Shown here: positions 3,133 through 53,424 of the stretch, piece by piece
Numbering within the stretch: position 1 is the first letter of the stretch
Layout of the letters: each line of letters opens with the position of its first letter
NCBI GenBank assembly: GCA_964522405.1
Contig: CAZFTR010000005.1
Coordinates: forward strand, 7,747-71,746
DNA: 64,000 nt
Direction of reading: 5' to 3'
DNA from: an uncultured Gammaproteobacteria bacterium
Lineage (GTDB): Bacteria; Patescibacteriota; Patescibacteriia; Magasanikbacterales; UBA922
Translations under genes and position numbers: made by a program
Notes under the pieces: generated by a model
What the model was told of the DNA's origin: nothing
Databases searched by the model: none
What the model saw: the letters and a program-made list of their open reading frames with translations, nothing else

Positions 3133-3203
3133 TGGGCGTGTCGGTTAATGGTAAACCACGGGTCTCCAAAACCCGAACTGGGAGTTCGATTCTCTCCACG
3201 CCT
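3133..3203 (+). tRNA. trnW: tRNA-Trp (anticodon CCA)
   Basis: Cloverleaf: acceptor gggcgtg/cacgcct, D arm ggtt-aatggta-aacc, anticodon arm cgggt-cTCCAaa-acccg, T arm gggag-ttcgatt-ctctc; CCA not encoded. Confidence 0.8.
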
Positions 3204-3207
3204 GCTA

Positions 3208-4548: not shown

Positions 4549-5907
4549 ATGCCTGTCAAAAAATATAAAAATGCCTATGTTGTTACAGTGGACATGGGTT
4601 ATGGTCATCAGCGCGCAGCTTATCCGCTCAAGGATATTGCCAGATGCATGACTAGCGGGAAGTGTGGAGAAGATTTTATTATAAATGCCAATACTTACAA
4701 GGGGATTCCGGCAGGTGATGCCGGCAAATGGAAGAGTAGTAGAAGTGTTTATGAATTTATCTCAAGACTAAAAAAATTACCCTTGATCGGTGATCCTATT
4801 TTTAATGCAATGGATTATTTTCAGAGAATTCAGCCTTTTTATCCTAAACGTGATTTATCAAAACCCAGTTTGCAGCTAAAATCTATTTATAAAATGATTA
4901 GAAAAGGTTGGGGAAAGCATTTGATAGATAAATTAAATCAAAATCCTTTGCCGATCATAACCTCTTTTTTCATACCAGCTTTTTTTGCAGATGAGCATGG
5001 TTATGAAGGGGATATTTATGCAATATGTACTGATACAGATGTGAGTCGTGCCTGGGCCCCACTTAACCCAAACAGAAGTAAAATCAATTACCTGGTTCCG
5101 AATAAAAGAGTTCGTGAAAGGTTAAAATTATATGGAGTTAGAAAAGAAAAAATCTTTGTAACCGGTTTTCCGTTACCAAAAGAAAATATTGGTAAAGATC
5201 TAAATATTCTAAAACAAAGTATTGGTTGTAGAATTGGAAATCTAGATCCCAAGCAAAGATATCAGAAAAAATATTCACATACTTTGGATTATTATCTTGG
5301 AGAAAGATACTGCAAGCTTAAAGCAAAACATCCCCTGACTATTACTTTTGCAGTTGGTGGCGCTGGAGCGCAAAGAGATATTGGGGTTACAATTTTGAAG
5401 AGTTTGCATAAATATATTGATAAAGGTGAAATAGCCCTAAATTTGGTGGCTGGTTCAAGATTGGATGTTTATCAATATTATAGAAAAGCGGTAAAAGAGC
5501 TTCATTTCAAAAAGCAACATGGTGGAAATGTGAAAATAATTTATGATGCTCATAAATTGAGATATTTTGGTCAGTTTAATAAAATTCTTCTGACCACTGA
5601 TATACTTTGGACCAAACCAAGTGAATTGTCTTTTTATGCAGGTTTGGGAATTCCTATAATTATGGCTCCGACAATTGGTTCACAAGAAGAATTCAATCGA
5701 TCTTGGTTACACTCTATAAACGCTGGTTTTGAACAAGAAGATCCAGCATATACACATGAATGGTTATTTGATTGGCTTGATTCTGGTTGGCTTGCAGAGG
5801 CTGCAATAGAGGGATTTCTTGATGCGCCTAGAAATGGGGTTTATCATATAGAAGATATTGTCTTACGAGGTGTGCGAAGTGAGATTGAGGATATGCATCT
5901 GCTTTAA
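4549..5907 (+). CDS. GT28-like glycosyltransferase (MGDG synthase/MurG-like fold)
   Basis: N-terminal VDMGYGHQRAA (GxGH motif) and C-terminal FAVGGAGAQ nucleotide-sugar-binding half. Confidence 0.45.
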   Translation: MPVKKYKNAYVVTVDMGYGHQRAAYPLKDIARCMTSGKCGEDFIINANTYKGIPAGDAGKWKSSRSVYEFISRLKKLPLIGDPIFNAMDYFQRIQPFYPKRDLSKPSLQLKSIYKMIRKGWGKHLIDKLNQNPLPIITSFFIPAFFADEHGYEGDIYAICTDTDVSRAWAPLNPNRSKINYLVPNKRVRERLKLYGVRKEKIFVTGFPLPKENIGKDLNILKQSIGCRIGNLDPKQRYQKKYSHTLDYYLGERYCKLKAKHPLTITFAVGGAGAQRDIGVTILKSLHKYIDKGEIALNLVAGSRLDVYQYYRKAVKELHFKKQHGGNVKIIYDAHKLRYFGQFNKILLTTDILWTKPSELSFYAGLGIPIIMAPTIGSQEEFNRSWLHSINAGFEQEDPAYTHEWLFDWLDSGWLAEAAIEGFLDAPRNGVYHIEDIVLRGVRSEIEDMHLL

Positions 5908-5910
5908 TAG

Positions 5911-5990
5911 TTGACAGTTGACAATTATTAGTTGACAGTTATTGATTGAATAATAAACACTGTAAACTATAAACTGTAAACTGTCCACTA
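5911..5990. promoter_or_regulatory. heptamer-repeat array (TTGACAGTT x3 ... AACTGTAAACT x3), inverted halves
   Basis: ttgacagttgacaattattagttgacagtt ... actgtaaactataaactgtaaactgtcc; 7-bp periodicity of AACTGTA; lies just upstream of the 6001 gene. Confidence 0.5.
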
Positions 5991-6000
5991 TTTATTATCT

Positions 6001-11416: not shown

Positions 11417-11568
11417 TTTCCTATTGACAATAATATTAAAATTTAATTATTAGGAAGTGAGTGCCCGGGCAGCCCTCACGTCATGCCTGGCCCATAACCG
11501 TAGCCACTGTTGATTCCTCCCGACAGGGCGGACAGTGCGTACACGGTTTTGACCTCAGCAGGTCTTCC

Positions 11569-11961
11569 TCAAGTGGGGGAAGGAGCGTCCAAGATGGACA
11601 CGGCCCGTGCGATCAGATCACTCGGGCGAAAGGGTTTAGCAACGAAACCTTGCACCGAACCACTCGCCAGCAGGCCTTGCAGCTCGCCAGTTTGTTCGCC
11701 GGTGAAGCCGGACACGAGCAGAAGAGGGGTGTTGTTGCCAGCTTGCCGAAGCGCGCTTGCCACCTCTGTCCCACCCATGCACGGCATGATCACGTCGCAG
11801 AAAATCAGGTCAAACTCACCATCGAGTGCCTTTGTCAGGCCGTCAGCGCCGTTGCCGGCACATTCGACCTCAGCCTCACCGAAGTGGCGAGACAGCGCCC
11901 TCACAGCGATCAACCTGATCATTTCCTCATCGTCAATCACTAGAAACCGCTTTCTTCCCAT
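11569..11961 (-). CDS. standalone CheY-like receiver domain protein encoded in a GC-rich island
   Basis: MGRKRFLVIDDEEMIRL...DLIFCDVIMP...LLLVSGF...VAKPF; GC-rich codon usage unlike neighbouring genes. Confidence 0.55.
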   Translation of the reverse strand: MGRKRFLVIDDEEMIRLIAVRALSRHFGEAEVECAGNGADGLTKALDGEFDLIFCDVIMPCMGGTEVASALRQAGNNTPLLLVSGFTGEQTGELQGLLASGSVQGFVAKPFRPSDLIARAVSILDAPSPT

Positions 11962-11998
11962 AACACCTCTCTTTTGGAGAGGGCTACCCGGACAGGCC

Positions 11999-12027
11999 AT
12001 ATTATATCATCTATGTTGTGCTGTCAA
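11999..12027 (-). promoter_or_regulatory. sigma70-type promoter for the GC-island receiver gene
   Basis: Minus-strand ttgaca-17 nt-taatat, about 35 nt upstream of the ATG, with a cctctc-caaaa-gagagg leader hairpin. Confidence 0.5.
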
Positions 12028-14296: not shown

Positions 14297-14315
14297 TTCT
14301 AAAATATAAATAAAA

Positions 14316-14345
14316 GCCAGCCCACACAAGGGCTGGTTTGATTTT
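14316..14345 (+). terminator. intrinsic terminator after cca
   Basis: gccagccc-acacaa-gggctggt then ttgatttt. Confidence 0.75.
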
Positions 14346-14349
14346 GAAG

Positions 14350-14770
14350 GGAGGGGTCGGCGCGGCAAGTTGGTCCTGAATTGCCCCTTTTATACGGGTG
14401 GTTGATGATACAACCGCGCCTTCCCCATAAATAGCCTTAGCTTGCGCCTTGGCCAAAGAACAGATGGATCGGGAACCTGGATTTGAACCAGGGACTTCAG
14501 GATTTGGAGTCCTGCACTCTACCGCTGAGTTATTCCCGAAAAAGAGAGGGCTGGGCTTGGGTCTGTCGCCAAGGCATATAGACCACAATCGGACTGGGAC
14601 GCCAGATCCAAGCTTGCCCCCATAAAAGGACAGAAACGCCATCTAGTCCACCGTGGACTAGGGGGGTGACAGCGAGTCTGTGCTGATCCGTGCTGGGCAC
14701 GGGCCCTGATGCGGGGATTTGCACCCCAATGCGCGACGAGTGCCGCGGTTTACTTTGCCTGATTTTGCGG
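14350..14770 (-). other. GC-rich structured island surrounding a tRNA-like gene
   Basis: By eye >55% GC. Perfect hairpins ctagtcca-cgg-tggactag and gggg-tgcaaat-cccc; long-range pair ggggaaggcgcgg/ccgcgccgacccc; no convincing ORF. Confidence 0.4.
14465..14539 (-). tRNA. tRNA-Trp-like (anticodon CCA), GC-rich, CCA encoded; a second and very different Trp tRNA
   Basis: Minus strand: TCGGGAA-TA-ACTC-AGCGGTA-GAGT-G-CAGGA-cTCCAaa-TCCTG-AAGTC-CCTGG-TTCAAAT-CCAGG-TTCCCGA-T-CCA. Confidence 0.6.
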
Positions 14771-15074
14771 AGTCAAATTGAGGCTTAAGCTTACAATTTT
14801 CTTGGCAACAGCATCAGGGAAGCCACTCATGGCGGCTATGTTTGTGGATGAGAAGTGCTCAACACTTGTGGCGGATTATGAATACCGCTTACCAACCCGA
14901 CAAGTGGGGCACAAGTTTACTCCCGTGAACGGGCAGACTTTCTTCACTCCTCACATTGATATCGAAAGCAATAAGAATATTATACAAAAGAGTTCTTTTT
15001 GTCAATTATAGAAGTGAATAAACAAATTGCTATTTTCAATTAAAATTGCTATAATGGCATCATAAATTTTCTAT

Positions 15075-16847: not shown

Positions 16848-17528
16848 ATGGAAACCAGAAAAGAACAATTACTCGGGCTGGTAGTAGAGGAATATATCAA
16901 AACAGCCCAGCCAATCGGATCAAAATTTTTAAGTACAGAAACAGAACTTAGAGTTAGTGCTGCAACAATTCGAAACGAAATGCGAGACCTAGAAGAAACC
17001 GGAATGCTAGCGCAACCACACACCTCAGCAGGAAGAATACCAACAGAAGCAGGGTACCGATACTATGTAGATAATATTTTAAAAATAGGAAAACTTACTA
17101 AGAAAAAACAGGAAAACTTACAAAAAATTGAAAAACTGGAATTAGATAAAAAAAGCAAATACAAAGAAATGGCAAAGTATATTTCAGAGGACTTGGGCGC
17201 TGCGGTTATCATTGCTTTTGGGAGTAATTCATTGTATTATACTGGGATTGGAAATTTATTTTCACAGCCAGAATTCCAAACTCATGCACATACAGTGGAT
17301 GTCTCAGCAGTATTTGACAAGTGTGAAGAAGTAATAGATCAGGTGTTTGAAGAAATAGAAAAGGGCTTACCAAAAGTTCTGGTTGGCAAAGAAAATCCAT
17401 TTGGTTCAGTCTGTAGTTTAGTGGGGGTCCGTTTTGGAAATCATAGTTTGTTGTCAGTTCTCGGACCCATGCGAATGAACTATGGTAGATCATTAGAATT
17501 TCTTGATTTTATCAAGGAAATCGATTAA
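16848..17528 (+). CDS. hrcA: heat-inducible transcription repressor HrcA (short)
   Basis: N-terminal wHTH QLLGLVVEEYIKTAQPIGSKFL...ISAATIRNEMRDLEETG; CIRCE upstream; grpE and dnaK downstream. Confidence 0.8.
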   Translation: METRKEQLLGLVVEEYIKTAQPIGSKFLSTETELRVSAATIRNEMRDLEETGMLAQPHTSAGRIPTEAGYRYYVDNILKIGKLTKKKQENLQKIEKLELDKKSKYKEMAKYISEDLGAAVIIAFGSNSLYYTGIGNLFSQPEFQTHAHTVDVSAVFDKCEEVIDQVFEEIEKGLPKVLVGKENPFGSVCSLVGVRFGNHSLLSVLGPMRMNYGRSLEFLDFIKEID

Positions 17529-17623
17529 TAGTTGATAGTTTGCAGTTTATTGACGATAATTAGTTGTAAACAAAATCAAATTTTAATCATAAACTAATAA
17601 CTATTAACTGTAAACTATCAACT
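17529..17623. promoter_or_regulatory. heptamer-repeat array with inverted arms agttgatagtttgcagtt / aactgtaaactatcaact
   Basis: 17/18 matching inverted repeat flanking a 58-bp AT spacer; second arm is tandem NAACTNN heptads ending 7 nt before the 17631 ATG. Confidence 0.5.
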
Positions 17624-17630
17624 AACAAAT

Positions 17631-19828: not shown

Positions 19829-21781
19829 ATGGGAAAAATATTAGGAATCGATCTAGGAACAACAAATTCATGTATGGCAGTGACAGAAGGTGGTCAGCCA
19901 AAAGTACTTGAGAACAAAGAGGGAAACAGAACAACACCTTCAATGGTTGCAGTTTCAAAAACAGGAGAACGACTTGCGGGACAACTTGCCAAACGTCAAT
20001 CAGTTACCAATCCAGCAAATACACTATATTCGATCAAACGTTTGATCGGACGACGTTTCAATGATCCGGAAGTGCAGGAAGTACAAAAGCATGTGCCTTT
20101 TGAGATTATTCCAGATGGAGATAGATTGAAAATCAAAATGGGGGACAAGGAACATACACCGCAAGAAGTTGCAGCAATGGTTTTACAAAAACTAAAAGCA
20201 GATGCAGAAGAAAAAACCGGTGAAACTATAACAGAGGCTGTTATTACAGTTCCAGCATATTTTGATGATGCACAACGCCAAGCAACAAAAGACGCAGGAG
20301 AAATTGCAGGTCTAAAAGTTTCAAGAATTATCAATGAGCCAACAGCAGCAGCATTTGCCTATGGTTTTGATAAGAAAAATGACCAGAAGATTGCAGTGTA
20401 CGATCTTGGTGGTGGAACTTTTGATATTTCAATTCTAGAGATTTCACATGATGCAGAAGACGACAGTTCAACTGTAGAAGTAATGGCTACAAATGGTGAC
20501 ACCCATCTAGGCGGAGATGATTTTGATCAGGCAATTATCAGATGGATAATCGATGAATTTAAACGCACTGAGGGTGTAGATTTGGGTTCAGACCCATTAT
20601 CACTCCAAAGAGTAAAAGATGCGGCTGAAAAGGCCAAAATAGAGCTCTCAAGCACTCCAGAAACAGAAATCAACGAACCATTTATCACAGCAGGAGCAGA
20701 AGGACCAAAACATTTGAATTTGAAGATGTCTCGAGCAAAATTAGAAGAGCTCGTGGGAGATTTAGTAGAGAGAAGTTTAATCCCAGTAAAGAAATCACTA
20801 GATGATGCTGGAGTTGCAAAAACAGATATAAATGAAGTAATTCTAGTAGGTGGAATGACCAGAATGCCATTAGTTCAGAAAAAAGTAGAAGAATTTTTTG
20901 GTAAAAAACCAAACTCATCAGTAAACCCAGATGAGGTAGTAGCAATGGGTGCCGCAATCCAAGCAGGACAGCTCCAAGGAGATCTTGGAAAAGAAATTTT
21001 GCTTCTTGATGTAACACCACTTTCATTTGGAATAGAGACACTTGGATCAGTTAGTACAAAAGTAATTGATAGTAATACAACAATTCCAACAACAAAATCA
21101 CAAGTATTTTCAACAGCAGCAGATAATCAGCCAAGTGTAGAAATACATGTGCTTCAAGGAGAGCGTGAAATGGCAACGGATAATAAAACATTGGGGAGAT
21201 TTCATCTTGATGGAATTCCACCAGCACCGCGTGGAGTGCCACAGATCGAAGTAAAATTTGATATTGATGCAAATGGAATCCTAAGTGTTTCAGCAAAAGA
21301 TAAGGGAACAGGAAAAGAACAATCAATTCGAATTGAAGCAAGTTCAGGACTAAGTGATGAAGAAATCGAAAAAATGAAAAAAGATGCAGAAGCGCATGCA
21401 GAGGAAGATAAGAAAAAACGTGAAATGATTGATATCAAAAATACAGCAGATACAATGGTTTACACAACAGAAAAAATGATGAAAGATGTTGAAGAAAAGA
21501 AAATAGAAATCACAGAAGAAGAAAAGAAAAAAGTAGAAGATGCATTAGTAAAAGTAAAAGAACTAAAAGAGGGTGAAGATATGGAAGCTTTGAAAACTGC
21601 ATCAGATGAACTTTCAACATCAGCCCAAGCAATCGGAATGAAAATGTATGAGCAAGAACAGGCTGCGCAAAAAGCAACTGGTGGAACAGAAGGCCAAACT
21701 GCAGGAGAAGCCGGTGCAGAAACTGACGAGAAAAAAGAAGATGGGCCGATTGAGGGTGAAGTTGTTGAGGATAGTAAATAG
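19829..21781 (+). CDS. dnaK: molecular chaperone DnaK (Hsp70)
   Basis: [28 protein letters not shown] signatures; 650 aa. Confidence 0.95.
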
Positions 21782-21850
21782 TTGACAGTTAACAGGTAAC
21801 AGTTCACAACTGGAAACTACAAACTGTAACCTGATAACTGTAATAAATAT
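21782..21850. promoter_or_regulatory. heptamer array gttgaca-gttaaca-ggtaaca-gttcaca / spacer / aaactgt-aacctga-taactgt
   Basis: GTTNACA x4, then the reverse-complement heptads; ends 2 nt before the 21853 ATG. Confidence 0.5.
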
Positions 21851-23072: not shown

Positions 23073-23112
23073 TTTTAACTATCAACTATAAGCTGTCAAC
23101 TATAATTAACCT
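23073..23112. promoter_or_regulatory. heptamer array ttaacta-tcaacta-taagctg-tcaacta upstream of dnaJ
   Basis: 7-bp register of (T/A)CAACTA, ending 9 nt before the dnaJ ATG. Confidence 0.45.
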
Positions 23113-27966: not shown

Positions 27967-28030
27967 AAATAGTAATAGTTGACAGTTTACAGTTAATAGT
28001 TTTGAGTGGTGAACGGTGATTGGTTTGGAT
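27967..28030. promoter_or_regulatory. heptamer array directly upstream of recJ (minus strand reads aaaacta-ttaactg-taaactg-tcaacta)
   Basis: Plus strand tagttgacagtttacagttaatagtttt; array abuts the recJ start codon. Confidence 0.5.
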
Positions 28031-34092: not shown

Positions 34093-35013
34093 TTACAACC
34101 ATTTTCTTTTTTTCAAGATCCAAATCGTAGAAAGAATAAGCGCTAAAAGTCCGATAAAAAATCCCCAAATCCAAGTAGGATTATTGGCAAATGGTAGTCC
34201 GGCAACATTCATACCGTAAATTCCGGATAGTAAAGTAAGAGGAAGCAATGAAACAGAAATAACAGTCAGAATACTAATCACCTTGGTAGTTTTTTGGTTG
34301 ATAATTGATTCAACAGTTAAGTGAAGTCCGCCAATTGTTTCTTTGTAAGTTTCTACTATGGCCCAAAGTTTGTCCAGGTAATCACGAATATTATCAAAAT
34401 AAATTGACAAGCTTTCGTCCATAAAGCTTTTGCGGGTATGAGAAAGATTAGACATTAAATATCTCTGCGGATCAATTATTCTTCTGAAATTCAAAACATT
34501 TCTTCTGTGAAATGCCAGTTGTTTAATTACATCATTGTCTGGTTCATCTTCAAAAATTTCATTTTCAACCGCAGAAATTTGCTTGCCAAAATTATTTAAA
34601 ATCGGTCTGGTCTCATGGAAAAATGCTTCTAAAAGTTTATATAATAAAAACCCTGAATTTTTACTCATCCAATCCTGTTTGATTTTCTTATTATTCATAC
34701 ATCGGTAAAAGAAATTTTTCATTTCTTTGCTTTTGTGATGTTGGATTGTGATTAGAAAGTTTTCCCCAACAAATATATCAACTTCCTGAGATTTTATTTG
34801 TTGGCTGCCCCCATGCCATCTTGGAGCATCTAATACCAAGAAAAGATAGTCTTCATAAACATCTATTTTAGGAGTTTGGCCTTCACTTTGAATGTCTTCA
34901 AGATCAAGTTGATGAAATTTATAGTTTTTTTTCAGGTAATCAATGGCTGAATCATCAGTCTTATCAATATTTATCCAAACTAATTTGTCTTTTTTTATTT
35001 CTTTTATAGCCAT
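34093..35013 (-). CDS. corA: magnesium/cobalt transporter CorA
   Basis: YGMNVAGLP (GMN motif) before two C-terminal TM helices. Confidence 0.85.
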   Translation of the reverse strand: MAIKEIKKDKLVWINIDKTDDSAIDYLKKNYKFHQLDLEDIQSEGQTPKIDVYEDYLFLVLDAPRWHGGSQQIKSQEVDIFVGENFLITIQHHKSKEMKNFFYRCMNNKKIKQDWMSKNSGFLLYKLLEAFFHETRPILNNFGKQISAVENEIFEDEPDNDVIKQLAFHRRNVLNFRRIIDPQRYLMSNLSHTRKSFMDESLSIYFDNIRDYLDKLWAIVETYKETIGGLHLTVESIINQKTTKVISILTVISVSLLPLTLLSGIYGMNVAGLPFANNPTWIWGFFIGLLALILSTIWILKKRKWL

Positions 35014-35037
35014 ATTTGAATAATTAAGCCTAAAATT

Positions 35038-35739
35038 TTATTTTTCTTCTTGGTTTTTTTCTAAATCAACTGTAACTGTTACAGCAACCAGATCAGTTTC
35101 AACTGTGTCTTTTTTGTCTCTTATATATACCAAACCATCAATTGTGTCAAGACTGAAAGTGAATTGACTTACAGTGTCTGTCTTACTGACCAACCCTATA
35201 TCAAAGCCTTTTTTCTCTAGTTCGCTCATATAGTATTCTTCAATAAAATCAGCTTTTGAGCTAAGTAATGTCCACTCAATCTTATAAACATCTCGGTGAT
35301 CTGCAACCGGAGCTTTCATAAAAGCAATTAACTTTTTCCAGGCAGTTTTCAAAGTGCCGGCATCTGAGTCTTCATCTTCCAATTCAGGTATAAAAGAATT
35401 GTCTTTGTCTATGGCAACCAAAACAGGAGATATGAACAATTTAGGCAAAAATGCTGCATATTCTGCGCCTTTGTTTCTTTCTTGTCCTATAGTAATTTCA
35501 ATTTTTTCAATTCCTTTTTCATTGTAGAGCGGCACTGTATCTGTAAAATTATCCGGCAGATCTTTTATTTCTCTGGTTTGTGGTCCAAGTGTAAATTTGA
35601 GGAGTATTAGCGAGATGACAATTATAATGGTTACGCATCCAAGTCCGGTAAAACAGCTTCTTCTAAGGCAGGAACGCTTTCTTGTTAATTCTTCAAGAGG
35701 GGGTTCTTTAATTTCTATCTTGTCTATTTTGCTGCGCAT
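35038..35739 (-). CDS. hypothetical membrane-anchored protein
   Basis: 233 aa, single N-terminal TM helix. Confidence 0.35.
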   Translation of the reverse strand: MRSKIDKIEIKEPPLEELTRKRSCLRRSCFTGLGCVTIIIVISLILLKFTLGPQTREIKDLPDNFTDTVPLYNEKGIEKIEITIGQERNKGAEYAAFLPKLFISPVLVAIDKDNSFIPELEDEDSDAGTLKTAWKKLIAFMKAPVADHRDVYKIEWTLLSSKADFIEEYYMSELEKKGFDIGLVSKTDTVSQFTFSLDTIDGLVYIRDKKDTVETDLVAVTVTVDLEKNQEEK

Positions 35740-35901
35740 AAATTAGCTTTTTTAAATTAGACTATAACTATAAGATAAAAAATCGTTGCACACGATTGGA
35801 GTTATTATATCAACAAAAGGGGAGCGTGTACAGGTTTGCTTTTAGTTTATATGGTATACTAATTTGCAGTAGATTTTTTAATTTAATTATGAGCTAAAAA
35901 T

Positions 35902-37254
35902 ATGAAAATAACATTTTACGGAGCAGCACATGAAGTAACAGGGTCATGTCATTTGGTAGAAACCAGTACCAAGAAAATTCTCTTTGATTGTGGAATGTTC
36001 CAAGGTTCAAATTTTAGTGAAGGACAGAATCACGAAGATTTTCCATTTGATCCCAGTGAGGTGGACATACTACTGGTTAGTCATGCGCATCTTGATCACA
36101 CCGGAAGAGTACCAAAATTGGTTAGAGATGGTTTCAATGGAAAAATATACATGACCAAAGCGACTTGTGAACTTGCCAGAATAATATGGGATGATGCCTA
36201 CAAAATCATGCAATACAACAAAAAGAAATTTGAACTGCCTATACTTTATGACACAACAGACATAGAAAGGTCAACAGAGCTTTGCCATGGTTTGGATTAT
36301 GAAGAAGAATTAGATCTCGGTGATGGTATAAAAGTAAAATTCAAAGATGCAGGACATATTTTTGGCGCAGCTTTTATAGAATTAACAGCAGATGGAAAAA
36401 CAATTGCCTATTCAGGAGATATAGGAAATGTAAATGTGCCCATCCTTCGGGAAACCACAGGATTGGGAGACATAGATGTTTTGCTATGTGAATCAACTTA
36501 TGGTGATAGGCTACATGAAACAGAAGAAGAAAGAAATAAAATTTTACTTGATCTTATAAAAGAAGGTTGTAAACGTGGCGGAACTATTATGATGCCGGCT
36601 TTTTCTATTGAAAGAACCCAAGAAATTTTATATAGGCTTGATGAGTTAAAAGAACATGACAAAACCTTGCCAGATATTCAGATATTTGTAGATAGTCCCA
36701 TGGCTATAAATGCCTTGCCGGTTTACAAGAAGTACACTGAATATTATGATGCTGAAGCAAAGGCAAAATTTGTAAAAGGAGATGATTTTTTCGATTTTGA
36801 AGGTCTTACTTTGACTCCAACTGTAAATGATTCTAAAAAAATAAATAATGTTAAGGGTGTAAAAATGGTTATGGCAGGAGCAGGAATGATGAATGGTGGA
36901 AGAATTCTTCACCATGCTTTGCGTTATTTGTCAGATCCCAAGTCAACTTTGATAATAGTTGGTTATCAGGCATATGGAACCTTGGGAAGAAGACTTTATG
37001 AAGGTGCCGAAAGAGTTACTGTGATGGGAAAACAAGTAGAAGTTAAATGCACTATCAAAGCTATTGGAGCACTTTCTGCTCATGGAGATCAGAAGAAATT
37101 AATGAATTGGATAAATGGTGCCAAAACCAAGCCAAAAAAAGTTTATTTTATTCACGGAGAGTCAAATTCAGCAACAGTAATAGCCCACAAAGTAAGAGAT
37201 GAGCTGGGAATTGATGCCTTTGTGCCTGAACTTGGGGAGAGTGCTGAGATATAA
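35902..37254 (+). CDS. MBL-fold beta-CASP ribonuclease (RNase J/CPSF-like)
   Basis: HxHxDH as VSHAHLDHTG; beta-CASP and RMMBL regions; 450 aa. Confidence 0.65.
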   Translation: MKITFYGAAHEVTGSCHLVETSTKKILFDCGMFQGSNFSEGQNHEDFPFDPSEVDILLVSHAHLDHTGRVPKLVRDGFNGKIYMTKATCELARIIWDDAYKIMQYNKKKFELPILYDTTDIERSTELCHGLDYEEELDLGDGIKVKFKDAGHIFGAAFIELTADGKTIAYSGDIGNVNVPILRETTGLGDIDVLLCESTYGDRLHETEEERNKILLDLIKEGCKRGGTIMMPAFSIERTQEILYRLDELKEHDKTLPDIQIFVDSPMAINALPVYKKYTEYYDAEAKAKFVKGDDFFDFEGLTLTPTVNDSKKINNVKGVKMVMAGAGMMNGGRILHHALRYLSDPKSTLIIVGYQAYGTLGRRLYEGAERVTVMGKQVEVKCTIKAIGALSAHGDQKKLMNWINGAKTKPKKVYFIHGESNSATVIAHKVRDELGIDAFVPELGESAEI

Positions 37255-37289
37255 AAAACAAAAAACCGCTTTTTGCGGATCGTATAATT

Positions 37290-37880
37290 TGGGGTAGGGT
37301 ACGGCCAGCGCGCTACCCGAGTCCGTTGCCTCTCTCTAGGCTCCGGTTTGGACTCGGGCAGCGCGCGGCCGCTAGTTGAAGCTCCAGAAGGAGCGGTGGG
37401 ATGCGCTATGGCACCGTGTTTACTTCGTGACAGTTCTTCGCACAAAGTCGACACAGGTTGCCGCAGACGCGACACTGGGTGGGGATCGTCGCGACCCCCT
37501 CTGGATCTCCAGGCCATTCGATTCGGCCTGGGAGCAGCGCGCTTAACCGGACTTCTCCCGGAATGATGGGCGCGACTGCTGTCTCATCACAGTCTTAAAG
37601 AGCAACACGAACCGTTGGCTTTGCAAGAGTCCTCAGTTCTTGCAATAACCTCACCTGGGCTAATCAGCCCGCACTTCCACCGCCTCGCGGTGGTTCTGGC
37701 AACCCACTTTGGGGTAGGCAACGCATGACGTCCACCGGGATTGCTGATCGTATTCGTTCACGACCTGCGGGTCAAAATTCCGGGTGGCGACCGTTGCTTC
37801 GAGGTTTTGAATATAGCATAAAAAAAGCCTTTTGTCAACCCTGTCGCTCGCGAACGACAGGGTCAAGGCCCTAAGATTGA
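37290..37880. other. about 600-bp GC-rich, highly structured, ORF-poor island (candidate structured ncRNA or foreign DNA)
   Basis: Starts ggggtagggtacggcc; 20-bp imperfect hairpin ggccagcgcgctacccgagtcc / ggactcgggcagcgcgcggcc; gctcc-agaa-ggagc; ccctgtcg-ctcgcgaa-cgacaggg; minus-strand terminator-like ccgcaaaaagcggtttttgttttt at 37262-37285. Confidence 0.35.
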
Positions 37881-37941
37881 AATATAGAAAAATGAGAAAT
37901 ATCAAAATTTAGCTAAACTAAGCAAATTTTTGAAAATAAAA

Positions 37942-37972
37942 ATCCAGCTCTTGTTAAAAGCTGGATTTTGGT
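37942..37972. terminator. hairpin with flanking A and T runs (bidirectional terminator-like)
   Basis: aaaatccagct-cttgttaaa-agctggatttt. Confidence 0.5.
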
Positions 37973-37974
37973 TT

Positions 37975-38110
37975 TAAGTGAAGTGTGCACGCCGGGATCA
38001 TGGATCCCGGCGTGCCCCCAGAGGCGGGGGTCTGGACAAGTGCCCGACCCACCAGTGCGGAGCAAGGGAGTTTGACCCAAAACGCATCTAAACTTTCACC
38101 GCAAATCGCG
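37975..38110. other. second short GC-rich structured segment upstream of uvrB
   Basis: 13-bp perfect hairpin gcacgccgggatc-atg-gatcccggcgtgc; ccccc-agagg-cggggg. Confidence 0.3.
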
Positions 38111-38222
38111 GTTCCAGAGTAGAAGAAGAGGATCCTAAATAATATATCATTTTTTTGCTGTATTTACAATATTTTGCTAGTATTAAGTGGTGATATAAGT
38201 TTTTCTAAATTAGCAAAAATTT

Positions 38223-40286
38223 CTGAAATTTAAACTTAAGTCAAAATACAAACCAGCAGGAGATCAGCCTCAGGCAATTGAATCTCTGGTTTTGGGTATG
38301 CAAAAATCAGCAGAGAGACAAACCTTGCTTGGAGTCACTGGTTCTGGAAAAACTTTTACTGTTGCAAATGTGATTGAGAAGGTTCAAATGCCAACTTTGG
38401 TAATTGCTCATAATAAAACTCTGGCAGCCCAGCTTTGTAATGAATTTCGTGAATTTTTTCCAGGTAACGCAGTTGAATATTTTGTAAGTTATTATGATTA
38501 CTATCAGCCAGAGGCATATATGTCTGGCAGTGATACCTATATAGAAAAAGAAGCTCAGGTAAACGATGAAATAGATAGACTTCGTCATGCTTGCACCCAA
38601 GCGCTTATGACTCGAGATGATGTGATCATAGTAGCTTCAGTTTCAGCAATTTATGGTCTTGGTTCACCAAAAGAATATGAAAAAATTGTTTTGCATCTTG
38701 AAGTTGGACAGAAAATTGAGAGAAGAGAGATGATGAAACACCTTATTGAAATGCAATTCAACAGAACAAGCACAGATTTGAAACGAGGGATGTTTAGAAT
38801 GCGTGGTCAGGTTTTTGAAATCATGCCGGTAAATGAAGATAGAGTTTATCGGTTTGAGATAAGCGATACTATTGAATCAATAGAGGTTTTAGATCCGATC
38901 ACCAGAAAATCAACTTCAAAAAGACAAATTAGAGATGCTTGGATTTTTCCTGCTAAGCATTATGTGATTGGAGAAGAGTCAAAAGGGGTTGCCATACAGA
39001 GCATAAAAAAAGAACTAGAAGAGCAATTGAACTTTTTTAAGAAAAAAGGAAAAGTTTTGGAATATGAAAGACTTAAACAGAGAGTTAGATATGATTTGGA
39101 GATGATTGAAAATATTGGATATTGCAATGGAATTGAAAATTATTCAGCTCATTTTGAAGCTAGGAAATCCGGAGAGCCTCCATTTACACTTCTTGATTAT
39201 TTCAAAGAAACTTCGAAAAGGGTTGGTGGTTTTCTAACTGTTATAGATGAGTCTCATGTAACAACTTCTCAAATTCGTGGCATGTACAATGGAGACAGGG
39301 CTCGCAAAAATTCACTTGTAGAACATGGTTTTAGGCTTCCCAGCGCGAGAGATAATAGACCTCTTAAATTTGAAGAATTTGATGATCGAGTAGAATCTCT
39401 TGTCTATGTTTCTGCAACTCCGGCTGACTATGAATTGCAAGACAGCTCTCAAGTAGTTGAGCAGATTGTCCGACCTACCGGTTTGGTTGACCCTGAGGTG
39501 ATAATCTCACAAATTACACCGACAAAGGATAATCCCAAGAGTCAAGTCGATGATGTGATAGAGAGGATAGGACAAGTTATAAAAAAAGGTGAGCGCGCTC
39601 TTGTAACTACTCTGACCAAGAGGATGGCAGAAGATCTGAGTGAATATCTTGAAAAGCAAGATATAAAAGTTAAATACCTGCATAGTGATATTAAAACTTT
39701 GGAGAGAATTGAAGTGATAATGGCTCTGCGAAAAGGAGAGATAGATGTTATAGTGGGGGTAAATCTTCTTCGTGAGGGTCTGGATATTCCGGAAGTTTCT
39801 TTTGTTGCCATTCTTGACGCAGATAAAGAAGGATTTCTACGAAGTGAAACAAGCTTAGTGCAGACCATTGGTCGCGCAGCCAGAAATGTAAATGGGCAAG
39901 TTGTTCTCTATGCAGACCAAATAACAGGTTCAATTGAGCGAGCAATCAAGGAAACAGACAGGAGAAGAAAAATTCAAATTGAATACAATGAAAAACATGG
40001 TATAACTCCAAAAACAATTGAGAAAAATATTCGAAATATTCTCGAAGAGTTTGGAATAAGTGGAAGCAAAGTTGATAAGCAGGTAAGAGGAAGGAAAAAA
40101 ACAAAGTCACTTAGAGAAATTCTTGAACTTGATACTATTGGAGATGATAGACCGGTAAGTGATATTTTAAAAGATAAAGAACAGAAAATGAAAAAAGCAG
40201 CAAAAGACTTGGAATTTGAATTTGCAGCAGTACTTCGGGATGAAATTCGTCAATTAAAAAAATCCCAAAAAGGGATTAAGAAATAA
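38223..40286 (+). CDS. uvrB: excinuclease ABC subunit B (start codon uncertain)
   Basis: Frame open from 38214 encodes the conserved UvrB N-terminus FKLKSKYKPAGDQPQAIESLV upstream of the ORF-track start. No in-frame ATG/GTG/TTG there; CTG at 38223 proposed. Body contains GVTGSGKT, DESH and the helicase C-terminus. Confidence 0.8.
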   Translation: MKFKLKSKYKPAGDQPQAIESLVLGMQKSAERQTLLGVTGSGKTFTVANVIEKVQMPTLVIAHNKTLAAQLCNEFREFFPGNAVEYFVSYYDYYQPEAYMSGSDTYIEKEAQVNDEIDRLRHACTQALMTRDDVIIVASVSAIYGLGSPKEYEKIVLHLEVGQKIERREMMKHLIEMQFNRTSTDLKRGMFRMRGQVFEIMPVNEDRVYRFEISDTIESIEVLDPITRKSTSKRQIRDAWIFPAKHYVIGEESKGVAIQSIKKELEEQLNFFKKKGKVLEYERLKQRVRYDLEMIENIGYCNGIENYSAHFEARKSGEPPFTLLDYFKETSKRVGGFLTVIDESHVTTSQIRGMYNGDRARKNSLVEHGFRLPSARDNRPLKFEEFDDRVESLVYVSATPADYELQDSSQVVEQIVRPTGLVDPEVIISQITPTKDNPKSQVDDVIERIGQVIKKGERALVTTLTKRMAEDLSEYLEKQDIKVKYLHSDIKTLERIEVIMALRKGEIDVIVGVNLLREGLDIPEVSFVAILDADKEGFLRSETSLVQTIGRAARNVNGQVVLYADQITGSIERAIKETDRRRKIQIEYNEKHGITPKTIEKNIRNILEEFGISGSKVDKQVRGRKKTKSLREILELDTIGDDRPVSDILKDKEQKMKKAAKDLEFEFAAVLRDEIRQLKKSQKGIKK

Positions 40287-40348
40287 ATTGATGGTGCCGA
40301 CGGCCCGCGTTCGAAAACGCGGACCGACGACGGGGGTTGTGGGGATGC

Positions 40349-40471
40349 TCAGACGAGCAGGGTCAGGGGCCAGAGGCTCCAGAGCGTGCTCACGAACGTG
40401 ATCTGGTTCTGGGTCCTTGCGGACGGCTCGGGCAGGGGGATCTGGGGCATGTGCCCCTTCTCGAACGTCAT
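40349..40471 (-). CDS. GC-rich small ORF (40 aa, hydrophobic W-rich C-terminus) with strong SD
   Basis: ggaaggagagagtcgag-ATG; MTFEKGHMPQIPLPEPSARTQNQITFVSTLWSLWPLTLLV; GC-rich third positions; followed by ccgcgtt-cgaa-aacgcgg hairpin. Confidence 0.3.
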   Translation of the reverse strand: MTFEKGHMPQIPLPEPSARTQNQITFVSTLWSLWPLTLLV

Positions 40472-40626
40472 CTCGACTCTCTCCTTCCGCGGTTGATTCC
40501 ACGAAATTCTAAATCGACTGATCAATTCAGTATTTCATGGAATCAAACTTTGAAGATTTGGAGTATTAAACCCACAACCGAATTATTCTACACTATGCAG
40601 TCAGTTTTGTCAAGATAAAACAAAAT

Positions 40627-41226
40627 ATGAAGAATTTTTGGCTGAAATATAGGAAATTTTTATATATTTGCGCTGTTTTAACTGCTGTTTTTGTGTTGTT
40701 TTGTAATTACTCAATACTAAAATTTAACAATCAGATTTACTCAGATACTTTAGAGTTGCCAACTAGCTCAATAGCAGTGGTCTTTGGTGGTGGCATGACC
40801 CCAGAGGGTGAACAGTCAGATATGCAATTTGATCGAGTCAAAACCGGGATAGATTTATATAGGAGTGGAATTGTGGATAAGATTTTATTTACAGGAGATG
40901 ATGGCCAGTTCAGATTTGATGAAATTACTGCCATGAAAAATATGGCTCTTGATCTGGGTGTAAAAGATTCTGATATTTTGATTGATCCACATGCATATAG
41001 GACATACTTGAGTTGTAAACATGCAGCAGAAATAAGCGAAATAAAAAAAGCTATTGTGGTTTCACAAAATTTCCACCTTCCTAGAATTAGATATATTTGT
41101 GAGAATTTTGGAATTAAAACTATTGGTTTTTCTGCAGATGCACGAGAATACCATTCTCTTTGGAGGCCTTATCTTCGTGAATCTTTGGCTCGAGTCAAGG
41201 CTTGGCTGGAGGTTAATTTGAAATAA
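40627..41226 (+). CDS. DUF218 (SanA/YdcF/ElyC family) membrane-anchored protein
   Basis: N-terminal TM helix; DUF218 core AVVFGGGMTPEG...ILFTGDDGQFRFDEITAM. Confidence 0.55.
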   Translation: MKNFWLKYRKFLYICAVLTAVFVLFCNYSILKFNNQIYSDTLELPTSSIAVVFGGGMTPEGEQSDMQFDRVKTGIDLYRSGIVDKILFTGDDGQFRFDEITAMKNMALDLGVKDSDILIDPHAYRTYLSCKHAAEISEIKKAIVVSQNFHLPRIRYICENFGIKTIGFSADAREYHSLWRPYLRESLARVKAWLEVNLK

Positions 41227-41370
41227 AAAATACCTTAACAATAAAATTGACACATATTTATATTTTTGCCATAGTTATCAATGCTGTATCTGTGAGGGCT
41301 GCGTTGTGGCCCTGCAAACGCGAATACTTGTCCCGCGGTGGGGCTTGTGGATACCCTTGGGGGGTATATT

Positions 41371-41634
41371 ATGACAGCTCAAGAGATGAGAGACTTCGCT
41401 GCTTCGCGCGGCATTTACTTCACCAAGCCTGGTGAGAGTGCTGCCCCGCTCGAGGAGCAAAGAGAGCTCGAGGTTCGCTGGCTCGAAGACACGGACGCCG
41501 ATCCGATCGGTACGGTGGCGGCGGGTTCCTCGATGTTCATGTTCGACGAGCTGGTCTGGAAGGTCGACCAGCTTCTCGGTCAGCTGCAGGCTGGCAAGTC
41601 GGTCGGACAGCCTCGGGTCATGCGCGCGGGCTGA
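41371..41634 (+). CDS. GC-rich small acidic protein (87 aa) of unknown function
   Basis: gggggg tatatt ATG; MTAQEMRDFAASRGIYFTKPGESAAPLEEQRELEVRWLEDTDADPIGTV...; much higher GC than neighbours. Confidence 0.35.
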   Translation: MTAQEMRDFAASRGIYFTKPGESAAPLEEQRELEVRWLEDTDADPIGTVAAGSSMFMFDELVWKVDQLLGQLQAGKSVGQPRVMRAG

Positions 41635-41730
41635 TTCGCGGTTCGCATCGCAGAGCAGGTGGGGGTTCGGCATTGTCGGACCCCATCGCTTCCTTTGTTT
41701 ATTTCTAGTATATAGAGGAGGCGAAATTAA

Positions 41731-41758
41731 AAAACTACCAATTACGGTAGTTTTTTAA
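41731..41758. terminator. bidirectional intrinsic terminator
   Basis: aaaaaactacc-aatta-cggtagtttttt. Confidence 0.7.
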
Positions 41759-41779
41759 TTATCTGAGAACACTCAGCTC

Positions 41780-42232
41780 TTATTTTACTTCAACTTTGTG
41801 AATATCACTGTAAACTTCACATTCATTTGCTTTTACAATACAGGCTCTAAGATGTCTTTCTCCGCTTGGAAGATCTGTCCAAGTTTTAGAAGTGTGAGCA
41901 GTTCCAAGTTCATACCAATATCCCTTGGTTGGCCATTCAGCTTTTTCATCAGAACTTAGAATAAGTCTAAATGCTTCTGCTGATTCTTTTAGTTTTTCTT
42001 CTACTGATAGTTCAATTTCAAGTGTTCCTGTCTCTGTTGCTTCTGCTTTTGTGATGGTGATTCCAGTTGTCTCTGATTTTGTTTTGGTTTCTTCACTTAC
42101 CATTTCTTTTTCAGCGTCTTTCTGCGGTTGTTCTGCGTCTTTTATATCTGTTTGACCAGGTGCAGCACATCCTCCACCAACTAGAATTAGTAAAGCAAAT
42201 AATCCACCAATAAGTTTGATTTTTGATTGCAT
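41780..42232 (-). CDS. hypothetical lipoprotein
   Basis: MQSKIKLIGGLFALLILVGGGCA lipobox; acidic repeats. Confidence 0.5.
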   Translation of the reverse strand: MQSKIKLIGGLFALLILVGGGCAAPGQTDIKDAEQPQKDAEKEMVSEETKTKSETTGITITKAEATETGTLEIELSVEEKLKESAEAFRLILSSDEKAEWPTKGYWYELGTAHTSKTWTDLPSGERHLRACIVKANECEVYSDIHKVEVK

Positions 42233-48740: not shown

Positions 48741-48824
48741 GTTAGTTAACAGTTTGAAGTTGGCAGTTTATAGTTAAGAATATTTCTACCAACTATTAAC
48801 TGTAAACTATTAACTATTTATTGT
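48741..48824. promoter_or_regulatory. inverted heptamer arrays agttaac-agtttga-agttggc-agtttat-agttaag / spacer / ccaacta-ttaactg-taaacta-ttaacta
   Basis: AGTTNNN x5, then the reverse-complement NNNAACT x4 in exact 7-bp register; upstream of the 48825 gene. Confidence 0.5.
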
Positions 48825-51976: not shown

Positions 51977-52013
51977 AAAAACCTATTCTTTAATTGCAAG
52001 AATAGGTTTTTTT
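51977..52013. terminator. bidirectional intrinsic terminator
   Basis: aaaacctattct-ttaattgcaag-aataggttttttt. Confidence 0.8.
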
Positions 52014-52087
52014 GCGGCCTGTCCGAGCGTGTGGAGCGCGGGCAGGCCTTGGGTCCCTCAGATGTGGATCCATGGTATCCTCCTTGG

Positions 52088-52198
52088 TTAGAACCGGTTG
52101 GGCTCGCCCTTGTTGGTCAGTAAGACCACCACGCAGAGGCCGGTGACGACCACGATCAGGCAGCCCGCGAAAGCAAATTGAGTTGCTTTTTTGAACAT
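52088..52198 (-). CDS. GC-rich small hydrophobic peptide (36 aa), possibly leaderless
   Basis: MFKKATQFAFAGCLIVVVTGLCVVVLLTNKGEPNRF; minus-strand ttgaca-17 nt-tagcat ends 6 nt before the ATG; an aaggagga SD and a 27-aa ORF follow. Confidence 0.3.
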   Translation of the reverse strand: MFKKATQFAFAGCLIVVVTGLCVVVLLTNKGEPNRF

Positions 52199-52294
52199 AG
52201 CTTTATGCTAGTTGATTTGCCTTTGTTTGTCAATCATGATGTCAGTATGATATTCTTTAGTAAAAAGGAGTTTGATTTTTATGTGAAGTAAGTT

Positions 52295-53359: not shown

Positions 53360-53424
53360 TTAACAGTTATAACTATTTTTGTTAAACTACTAACTGTTAT
53401 CTGTAAACTGTAAACTAATAAAGT
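53360..53424. promoter_or_regulatory. heptamer array agttaac-agttata ... taaacta-ctaactg-ttatctg-taaactg-taaacta
   Basis: 7-bp register, inverted arms, ends 7 nt before the 53425 ATG. Confidence 0.45.

Follow-up and report, generated by a model that had tools for sequence, protein, structure and literature searches.

Two tandem GC-rich units with predicted promoters and terminators between a beta-CASP RNase gene and uvrB in a Candidatus Magasanikbacteria genome

The GC-rich sequence that separates a beta-CASP RNase gene (bCASP) from uvrB in this AT-rich Candidatus Magasanikbacteria genome (Patescibacteria, CPR) appears to consist of two tandem, self-contained minus-strand units, C1 and C2, inserted in the bCASP-uvrB spacer. 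In each unit, a sigma-70 promoter that is AT-rich, close to the consensus and extended at the -10 element would drive transcription of a body that is GC-rich from the start site onward and closes with an intrinsic terminator. The predicted RNAs are ~545 nt long for C1 and ~200 nt for C2, each with several long near-perfect hairpins. We are fairly confident of this two-unit, foreign-cassette architecture. To the fuller reading, that C1 and C2 are horizontally acquired moron-like cassettes with structured non-coding RNA products, we give an even chance; the transcription of the units, and the functionality and role of their RNAs, are what we infer. A preliminary description had reported ~800 bp of GC-rich, highly structured sequence in two segments. 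The structure was borne out, but the description missed the minus strand, the split into two units, and the recurrence of the same class of cassette both in the window (the whole 64-kb stretch of DNA analyzed here) and in relatives.

Setting and layout of the two units

The two blocks singled out in the preliminary description indeed stand far above their flanks, at 55–63% GC in a genome of 36% GC. Block 37290-37880 has 57% GC with a peak of 63.5% and block 37975-38110 about 55–59%, with an AT-rich spacer between them. When measured in 200-nt windows, the GC fraction is 0.555–0.635 over 37200-37800 and 0.465–0.47 around 37900-38200, where AT-rich flanks dilute the value, compared with 0.33–0.39 in the flanking genes and a window mean of 0.361. 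The observed/expected ratio of CpG is 1.06 in C1 and 0.84 in C2 versus 0.62 in the host. The upstream gene, described earlier as RNase J-like, was placed by Pfam as a beta-CASP metallo-beta-lactamase RNase gene (35902-37254, plus strand; Beta-Casp 8.6e-37, RMMBL 6.9e-14), and the downstream gene is uvrB. The spacer between them measures 1,038 bp by ORF coordinates and ~970 bp up to the likely CTG start of uvrB. Two Logan contigs from independent assemblies, of runs SRR8146441 and SRR8146440, show 100% identity to window positions 34705-37839 and 36644-38461, respectively, and because these two sister-run assemblies are identical at every junction, the GC-rich junctions are not an assembly artifact. 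A literature search returned no paper on GC-rich islands in Magasanikbacteria, nor on the SRA runs. The features of the two units are listed below.

37810 to 37838, minus strand: predicted C1 promoter, TTGACA (37838-37833), 17-nt spacer, TG-extended -10 element TATATT (37815-37810)
37256 to 37803, minus strand: predicted C1 transcript, ~545 nt, GC-rich, with many hairpins and no SD-led ORF
37303 to 37370, minus strand: C1 hairpin of ~21 bp close to the 3' end, RNA arms GGCCGCGCGCUGCCCGAGUCC / GGACUCGGGUAGCGCGCUGGCC
37255 to 37278, minus strand: weak intrinsic C1 terminator, CCGC-AAAAA-GCGG followed by U6-G-U4, read from the sequence
37838 to 37863, no strand assigned: palindrome ACCCTGTCG-N8-CGACAGGGT, 9 bp and perfect, arms 37838-37846 / 37855-37863
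38141 to 38169, minus strand: predicted C2 promoter, TTGTAA, 17-nt spacer, TG-extended TATATT
37932 to 38134, minus strand: predicted C2 transcript, ~200 nt, including a perfect 13-bp hairpin at 37987-38015
37939 to 37969, minus strand: C2 terminator, AAAATCCAGCT...AGCTGGATTTT plus U-run, called by the scanner with 14 pairs

The C1 promoter (TTGACA-17-TGnTATATT) agrees with the consensus at 11 of 12 positions and carries the TG extension in addition. GC content rises from 0.33 within the promoter to 0.62 in positions +1 to +40 relative to a predicted start near 37803. The C1 RNA folds with an MFE of -235.8 kcal/mol (z = -6.33). Its 21-bp stem is formed by arms at 37303-37324 and 37350-37370 with one bulged A, and the single A.C mismatch of the plus strand corresponds to a G.U pair in the RNA of the minus strand. 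Immediately upstream of the -35 box, and overlapping it by one base, lies the palindrome ACCCTGTCG-N8-CGACAGGGT. The preliminary description had listed an 8-bp version of it among the hairpins and missed that the palindrome is upstream of the predicted C1 start site and therefore outside the C1 RNA. By its position it looks like an operator. Otherwise, the hairpins quoted earlier were all found in place, namely the ~21-bp stem with one bulge, the perfect 13-bp stem and the palindrome, which extends to 9 bp.

At the far end of C1, the terminator-like hairpin placed earlier at 37262-37285 does exist, but it amounts to a 4-bp stem (CCGC/GCGG) followed by U6-G-U4; the scanner makes no call there because the stem is so short. 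The terminator runs up to the complement of the stop codon of bCASP. No plus-strand terminator for bCASP precedes 37939-37969, and C1 is convergent with this gene, so by layout C1 would be fully complementary to the read-through 3' UTR of bCASP. By passing its own weak terminator, C1 could also read antisense into bCASP. With duplexfold, a program unsuited to long RNAs, duplexes of C1 and C2 with the mRNAs of the other cassettes and with the 5' regions of uvrB and bCASP gave no z below -2.

The C2 promoter lies back-to-back with the uvrB promoter region and matches the consensus at nine of 12 positions, again with the TG extension. The rise in GC is from 0.15 within the promoter to 0.50 in +1 to +40, with the predicted start near 38134. 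The C2 RNA has an MFE of -87 kcal/mol (z = -7.17), and the arms of its 13-bp hairpin (37987-37999 / 38003-38015) are 100% complementary. The C2 terminator is located in the AT-rich spacer, where the preliminary description had noted a bidirectional terminator at 37942-37972. A terminator on the minus strand is supported by the scanner call at 37939-37969. This hairpin may act both ways and may be the original bCASP terminator. A 15-nt repeat (37264-37278 / 38099-38113) considered as the terminal inverted repeat of a MITE-like element was rejected, as it turned out to be two similar small CCGC-loop-GCGG hairpins.

Compared with dinucleotide shuffles, segment 37286-37880 gave MFE z scores of -6.4 for the plus strand and -6.9 for the minus strand. 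In both C1 and C2, a predicted promoter and terminator bound an ORF-less unit whose predicted structure is above chance. It should be noted that every cassette transcript in the window, coding ones included, folds better than its shuffles (z from -3.3 to -7.2). The protein-coding sibling cassettes alone span z scores of -4.4 to -6.4, so a strongly negative z is a property of the class and no proof of a non-coding RNA.

Sibling cassettes in the window and at the bCASP-uvrB locus of relatives

C1 and C2 are two of at least seven GC-rich cassettes in the window. All follow one plan, in which an AT-rich consensus promoter precedes a sharp rise in GC at the predicted start site and a terminator or hairpin closes the opposite end. 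In six of the seven, the switch in GC coincides with the predicted start site. A count over the whole window of TTGACA-N16-18 followed by a recognizable -10 element gave 12 exact TTGACA promoters, half of which (6/12) sit at the edges of GC islands, all six pointing inward. The class has 57–65% GC and an observed/expected CpG of 0.72–1.06 in the islands versus 0.62 in the host; the cassette promoters are host-like in composition. The five siblings of C1 and C2 are as follows.

11440 to 12027, minus strand: cassette A, TTGACA promoter, strong SD, GC-rich orphan CheY-like receiver of 130 aa (11961-11569)
14305 to 15005, minus strand: cassette B, TTGACA promoter, ~430-nt GC-rich leader, tRNA-Trp(CCA) (14539-14465), terminator (14336-14317)
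40287 to 40613, minus strand: cassette D, TTGACA-17-TAGAAT promoter, structured leader, GGAAGGAG SD, 40-aa peptide (40471-40349) with a hydrophobic C-terminus
41247 to 41765, plus strand: cassette E, TTGACA promoter, GGGGGG SD, 87-aa orphan ORF (41371-41634), terminator hairpin (41725-41760)
51985 to 52233, minus strand: cassette F, TTGACA promoter, leaderless 36-aa hydrophobic peptide (52198-52088), GGAGG-led 27-aa basic peptide (52073-51990), terminator

Four of these cassettes, namely A, D, E and F, are coding: they carry genes for small proteins together with strong SD sites, which host genes lack. When the SD pairing energy was computed against CACCUCCUU, the first ORFs of A, D and E scored from -8.1 to -10.7 kcal/mol and the second ORF of F -10.9, compared with a mean of +0.4 kcal/mol and a best value of -5.2 for 29 host genes, whose upstream regions are AT-rich and free of SD sequences. 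The anti-SD motif has been reported to be lost in about half of Parcubacteria (PMC9297842), with which the SD-less host genes agree. Transcripts of A, D and E are predicted to fold with their 5' end paired to their 3' end. The CheY-like protein of cassette A matches Pfam PF00072 (2.6e-16), and its best non-self match among 5.8 billion proteins has 36% identity; the 87-aa protein of cassette E had no homologue in the protein search. The tRNA-Trp(CCA) of cassette B is a second one, with only about 50% identity to the native tRNA-Trp at 3134-3205, and a distant blastn of this cassette against plasmids and phages gave only a trivial tRNA match.

The islands share no similarity with each other or with any other locus searched, and no second copy was found in the window or at the loci of relatives. 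A motif common to islands A and C (GCTACCCG / CGGGCAGC) was set aside, since an 8-mer is not significant in ~3 kb of GC-rich sequence. Searches of all islands by blastn, tblastx and nhmmer against 161 syntenic or related loci (~2 Mb) recovered only the window's own Logan contig. A distant blastn of C1 and C2 against plasmids and phages, and a scan of IMG/VR viral contigs for the exact hairpin patterns, gave no match, and no donor lineage emerged from the plasmids, phages, viral contigs and relatives' loci searched. The closest relative obtained from metagenome and GTDB scans has ~70% amino-acid identity in bCASP.

Given that the composition of the cassettes (GC and CpG) and their SD sites are both foreign to an SD-less host of 36% GC, horizontal acquisition is the explanation that these data argue for. 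A foreign origin is further supported by the redundant, divergent tRNA-Trp of cassette B and by the orphan cassette proteins; the host-like composition of the promoters, and the failure of the above searches to find a donor lineage, speak against it. The preliminary description had offered foreign DNA as an alternative to a structured RNA, and in this it was partly right: the high GC, the non-depleted CpG and the cassette layout are common to C1, C2 and the neighboring SD-bearing islands.

In relatives, the synteny of bCASP and uvrB is kept while the spacer ranges from 123–180 bp (L005, L008, L010, L012 and L017) up to 1.5–7 kb. In five relatives (L015, L006 with two tandem units, L009, L013 and L004), minus-strand consensus promoters lead into GC islands in this same spacer. 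SD-led membrane proteins are encoded in the L004 island (154 aa) and in unit 2 of L006 (~87 aa), and other islands of relatives are ORF-poor like C1 and C2. Pfam found no match for ORFs in these islands. By blastn, nhmmer, Smith-Waterman alignment and shared k-mers, the relatives' islands resemble neither C1 and C2 nor one another, and between ORF-poor units of different species, shared k-mers and Smith-Waterman alignment gave only the T-runs of terminators. Among relatives, as many promoters were directed into GC islands as away from them (6 versus 6), a comparison that does not discriminate because the promoters of host genes that follow an island score as pointing away. The bCASP-uvrB spacer acts like a hot spot, at which cassettes of like orientation and layout carry unrelated payloads.

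Coding potential, known RNA families and alternative readings

Neither segment had appeared to contain a convincing ORF, and this view is upheld by the present analysis. Stops occur in all six frames of the region, and in each frame their density is close to the ~3.6% per codon that we calculate for random sequence at 57% GC, which argues against a recently inactivated ORF. The three longest ORFs of the region have no match in Pfam. A 92-aa plus-strand frame of C1 has none in a library of 5.8 billion proteins, and a 109-aa minus-strand frame of C1 found only itself and one low-complexity protein in a library of 1.84 billion representatives. C1 has no ORF with an SD energy of -8 or lower, and the only strong-SD ORF in C1 and C2 is a 15-codon frame whose 'SD' sits inside the 13-bp hairpin. 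No credible open frame with an initiation signal and/or homology was found in either unit, and we therefore take RNA, not protein, to be the most likely product.

A small doubt comes from the 5' half of C1 (37546-37800), which shows a coding-like 3-nt periodicity in GC with a permutation p of 0.007 that is uncorrected for the several segments tested, close in size to the periodicity of the CheY-like coding sequence (p = 0.013). This observation, together with the fact that four sibling cassettes are coding and that conservation of C1 and C2 was not detectable among the relatives' loci searched, speaks for the strongest alternative, in which C1, and perhaps C2, is the decaying relic of a coding GC-rich cassette that kept its promoter and terminator and whose transcript has no function. 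We regard this as unlikely. An ORF so thoroughly destroyed that stops have reached the random expectation in each frame should have lost its GC too, yet neither GC nor CpG has shifted toward the host values, and the long stems remain perfect. The frames tested show no SD remnant and no protein homology, and in C2 no 3-nt GC periodicity was seen (p = 0.91).

Still less probable, in our view, is that C1 and C2 encode unrecognized small proteins that are translated without a canonical SD in the manner of host genes. Three candidates can be named.

From GTG 37761: small-ORF candidate of 33 aa
37626 to 37543: small-ORF candidate of 27 aa
38087 to 37998: small-ORF candidate of 29 aa

Cassettes D and F do encode peptides of 27–40 aa, one of them leaderless, and the 3-nt GC periodicity in the 5' half of C1 is in phase with the minus-strand frame that contains the 33-aa candidate. 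However, the SD sites of the candidates are weak or absent, whereas the first ORF is SD-led in three of the four coding siblings and leaderless in the fourth, F. None of the candidates is hydrophobic or has homologues, and their start codons are buried in predicted stable structure.

GC spikes in AT-rich genomes often mark structured RNA genes, and on these grounds the preliminary description had proposed a structured RNA gene, naming RNase P RNA, tmRNA, SRP RNA and 6S RNA. The direction was right, in that two ORF-less units running from promoter to terminator with strong folding were found, but the named candidates are excluded. Rfam 15 at gathering thresholds returned only two tRNAs for the whole window, and on positions 37000-42200, searched on both strands up to E ≤ 10, it returned only sub-threshold chance matches, none to RNase P, tmRNA, SRP or 6S; the check proposed for a routine non-coding RNA therefore produced no assignment at either cutoff. 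OLE, GOLLD, HEARO, ROOL and raiA had no Rfam match at E ≤ 10, and no family was found at gathering thresholds on the loci of seven relatives. Within 37201-38200, ARAGORN detected neither a tRNA nor a tmRNA, also under the relaxed setting -ps80. RNase P RNA, tmRNA, SRP RNA, 6S RNA and the large orphan RNAs are therefore excluded as far as covariance models see. Two more facts tell against a divergent native housekeeping RNA, namely that many relatives have no insert (spacers of 123–180 bp) and that the inserts of others have no sequence similarity to the window. We consider this reading largely refuted already and its truth very improbable. The same small weight falls to the reading of the region as a chimeric assembly or as a repeat element of the MITE, REP or PATE type, for which the abrupt change in composition and the many palindromes could be cited, but the two other assemblies are identical over all junctions, promoters and terminators are arranged consistently at each of the seven islands, no second copy exists among the sequences searched, and the islands are mutually dissimilar.

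Comparison with known systems and implications

Among known systems, the reading of C1 and C2 as acquired cassettes brings them closest to phage morons, which were reportedly described by Hendrix and colleagues as autonomous promoter-gene-terminator units between phage genes. Like morons, C1 and C2 are discrete units between conserved genes, each with its own predicted sigma-70 promoter and intrinsic terminator; they deviate in composition (GC 0.57–0.59 versus 0.36, CpG 0.84–1.06 versus 0.62), and the cargo at the bCASP-uvrB position varies among related genomes. A promoter, a payload and a terminator are found here between genes that are adjacent in relatives with spacers of 123–180 bp, and three of the four defining features of a moron are present. 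A phage or prophage location is not: unlike those of morons, the flanks are CPR chromosomal housekeeping genes (beta-CASP RNase, uvrB, metK, CCA-adding enzyme and YidC) and not a prophage, and these neighbors are syntenic across Magasanikbacteria. C1 and C2 also differ from morons in having no ORF and in belonging to a group of at least seven such units in 64 kb.

Other comparisons are less close in different respects. Large orphan and housekeeping non-coding RNAs (OLE, GOLLD, HEARO, ROOL, raiA, RNase P, tmRNA, SRP and 6S) resemble C1 and C2 in being intergenic, GC-rich relative to the genome, strongly structured by prediction and equipped with a promoter and a terminator of their own. In contrast, C1 and C2 match no Rfam 15 family, have no homologues found and are absent from many close relatives. 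With the sRNA genes of prophages and islands and with type I toxin-antitoxin loci they share a strong promoter, a structured RNA, a terminator and a probable horizontal origin, and cassettes D and F also encode small hydrophobic peptides on highly structured mRNAs with pairing of the 5' and 3' ends. Unlike such loci, C1 and C2 have no small hydrophobic ORF and, by a poorly suited method, no significant complementarity to other cassette mRNAs. A palindrome-rich, intergenic region is likewise typical of MITE, REP and PATE elements, from which C1 and C2 differ in being single-copy: they lack shared termini and a target-site duplication, and neither the window nor the relatives contain a family of related copies.

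A broader proposal, which we put forward tentatively and with less confidence than the reading of C1 and C2 themselves, is that Magasanikbacteria chromosomes are seeded with undescribed GC-rich promoter-terminator cassettes of 0.2–0.9 kb. These would be SD-led where coding, in hosts whose own genes lack SD sites, would turn over rapidly at conserved intergenic hot spots, with the same orientation at bCASP-uvrB, and would carry orphan small proteins, a tRNA or novel structured RNAs as cargo, C1 and C2 being RNA-only. If such a class is real, it would point to an unrecognized route by which gene cassettes enter CPR genomes and would supply new families of non-coding RNA. If transcribed, C1 and C2 would be two new structured RNAs with no known family from an uncultured CPR lineage. 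The cassette phenomenon, with its contrast between SD-led cassettes and SD-less host genes, matters more than the 800 bp alone. It raises the questions of how foreign genes come to be acquired and expressed in the reduced genomes of symbiotic CPR bacteria and of whether such hosts still translate SD-led messages. Because SD-bearing cassettes lie between housekeeping genes and the cargo differs in relatives, both questions are testable with existing metagenomes and metatranscriptomes.

Shine-Dalgarno use and products of the GC-rich cassettes

Shine-Dalgarno (SD) sites are entirely absent from host genes across the whole window (29 long ORFs), whose upstream regions are AT-rich, whereas all SD-like sites preceding real ORFs in the window lie in the GC-rich cassettes. 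The following genes were found in these cassettes, together with one native tRNA copy outside them:

11569-11961 (-): single-domain CheY-like receiver, cassette A; 58% GC, strong SD
14465-14539 (-): divergent tRNA-Trp(CCA), inside island (cassette) B
3134-3205 (+): native tRNA-Trp(CCA)
40349-40471 (-): 40-aa hydrophobic peptide, cassette D; GGAAGGAG upstream
52088-52198 (-): 36-aa hydrophobic peptide, cassette F; leaderless

The entire mRNA of the CheY-like receiver is enclosed by a 16-nt inverted repeat (11462-11477 / 11979-11994), and the top non-self match of the protein in a search of 5.8 billion proteins is only 36% identical. In predicted folds, the transcripts of cassettes A (11440-11992), D (40287-40578), and E (41283-41765) would each pair the extreme 5′ end with a near-3′ segment, enclosing the whole RNA.

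The window carries two tRNA-Trp(CCA) genes. When they are aligned, no more than 37 of 75 columns are invariant between the native gene and the island B copy. The latter, whose acceptor end is U1-A72 and whose CCA is encoded, sits in a GC-rich leader with a consensus promoter approximately 430 nt upstream.

The two hydrophobic peptides look like type I toxins, and their transcripts are GC-rich and predicted to be highly structured, with strong promoters. No antitoxin RNA partner was identified for either peptide.

The uvrB start and a heptamer-repeat motif

uvrB appears to start at a CTG codon (38223-38225). The reading frame is interrupted by a stop at 38211, with no ATG, GTG, or TTG until 38292. 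In all relatives, where the start is ATG, M-K-F... lines up with the conserved N-terminus K-F-K-L-K-S-K-Y-K-P-A-G-D-Q-P.

Matches to the heptamer-repeat motif AACTGTAAACTGTCAACTAT at ≤3 mismatches number 12, versus 0 in shuffles (sites at 5907-5991, 17528-17625, 21778-21797, 23084-23103, 27975-27994, 48791-48817, and 53399-53418). Copies directly precede start codons among the gene-upstream sequences inspected, and some form inverted pairs; the motif may be a host-specific 5′-UTR, terminator, or REP-like element.

GC-rich genes in Magasanikbacteria relatives

In L006, one of the relatives' loci compared, CUGAUGAG...CGCCAAAG (11930-11975, minus strand) superficially resembles the core of a hammerhead; the Rfam search of this locus returned no match to one. 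Three other loci encode GC-rich small proteins with C-terminal membrane anchors, none of which has a Pfam family:

L005: 18139-18543
L014: 16203-16703, 16835-17296
L010: 9562-10041, 10223-10630

Because these small proteins (~58% GC) are conserved across different Magasanikbacteria species with genomes of 40–43% GC overall, the comparison suggests within-phylum circulation of GC-rich genes.
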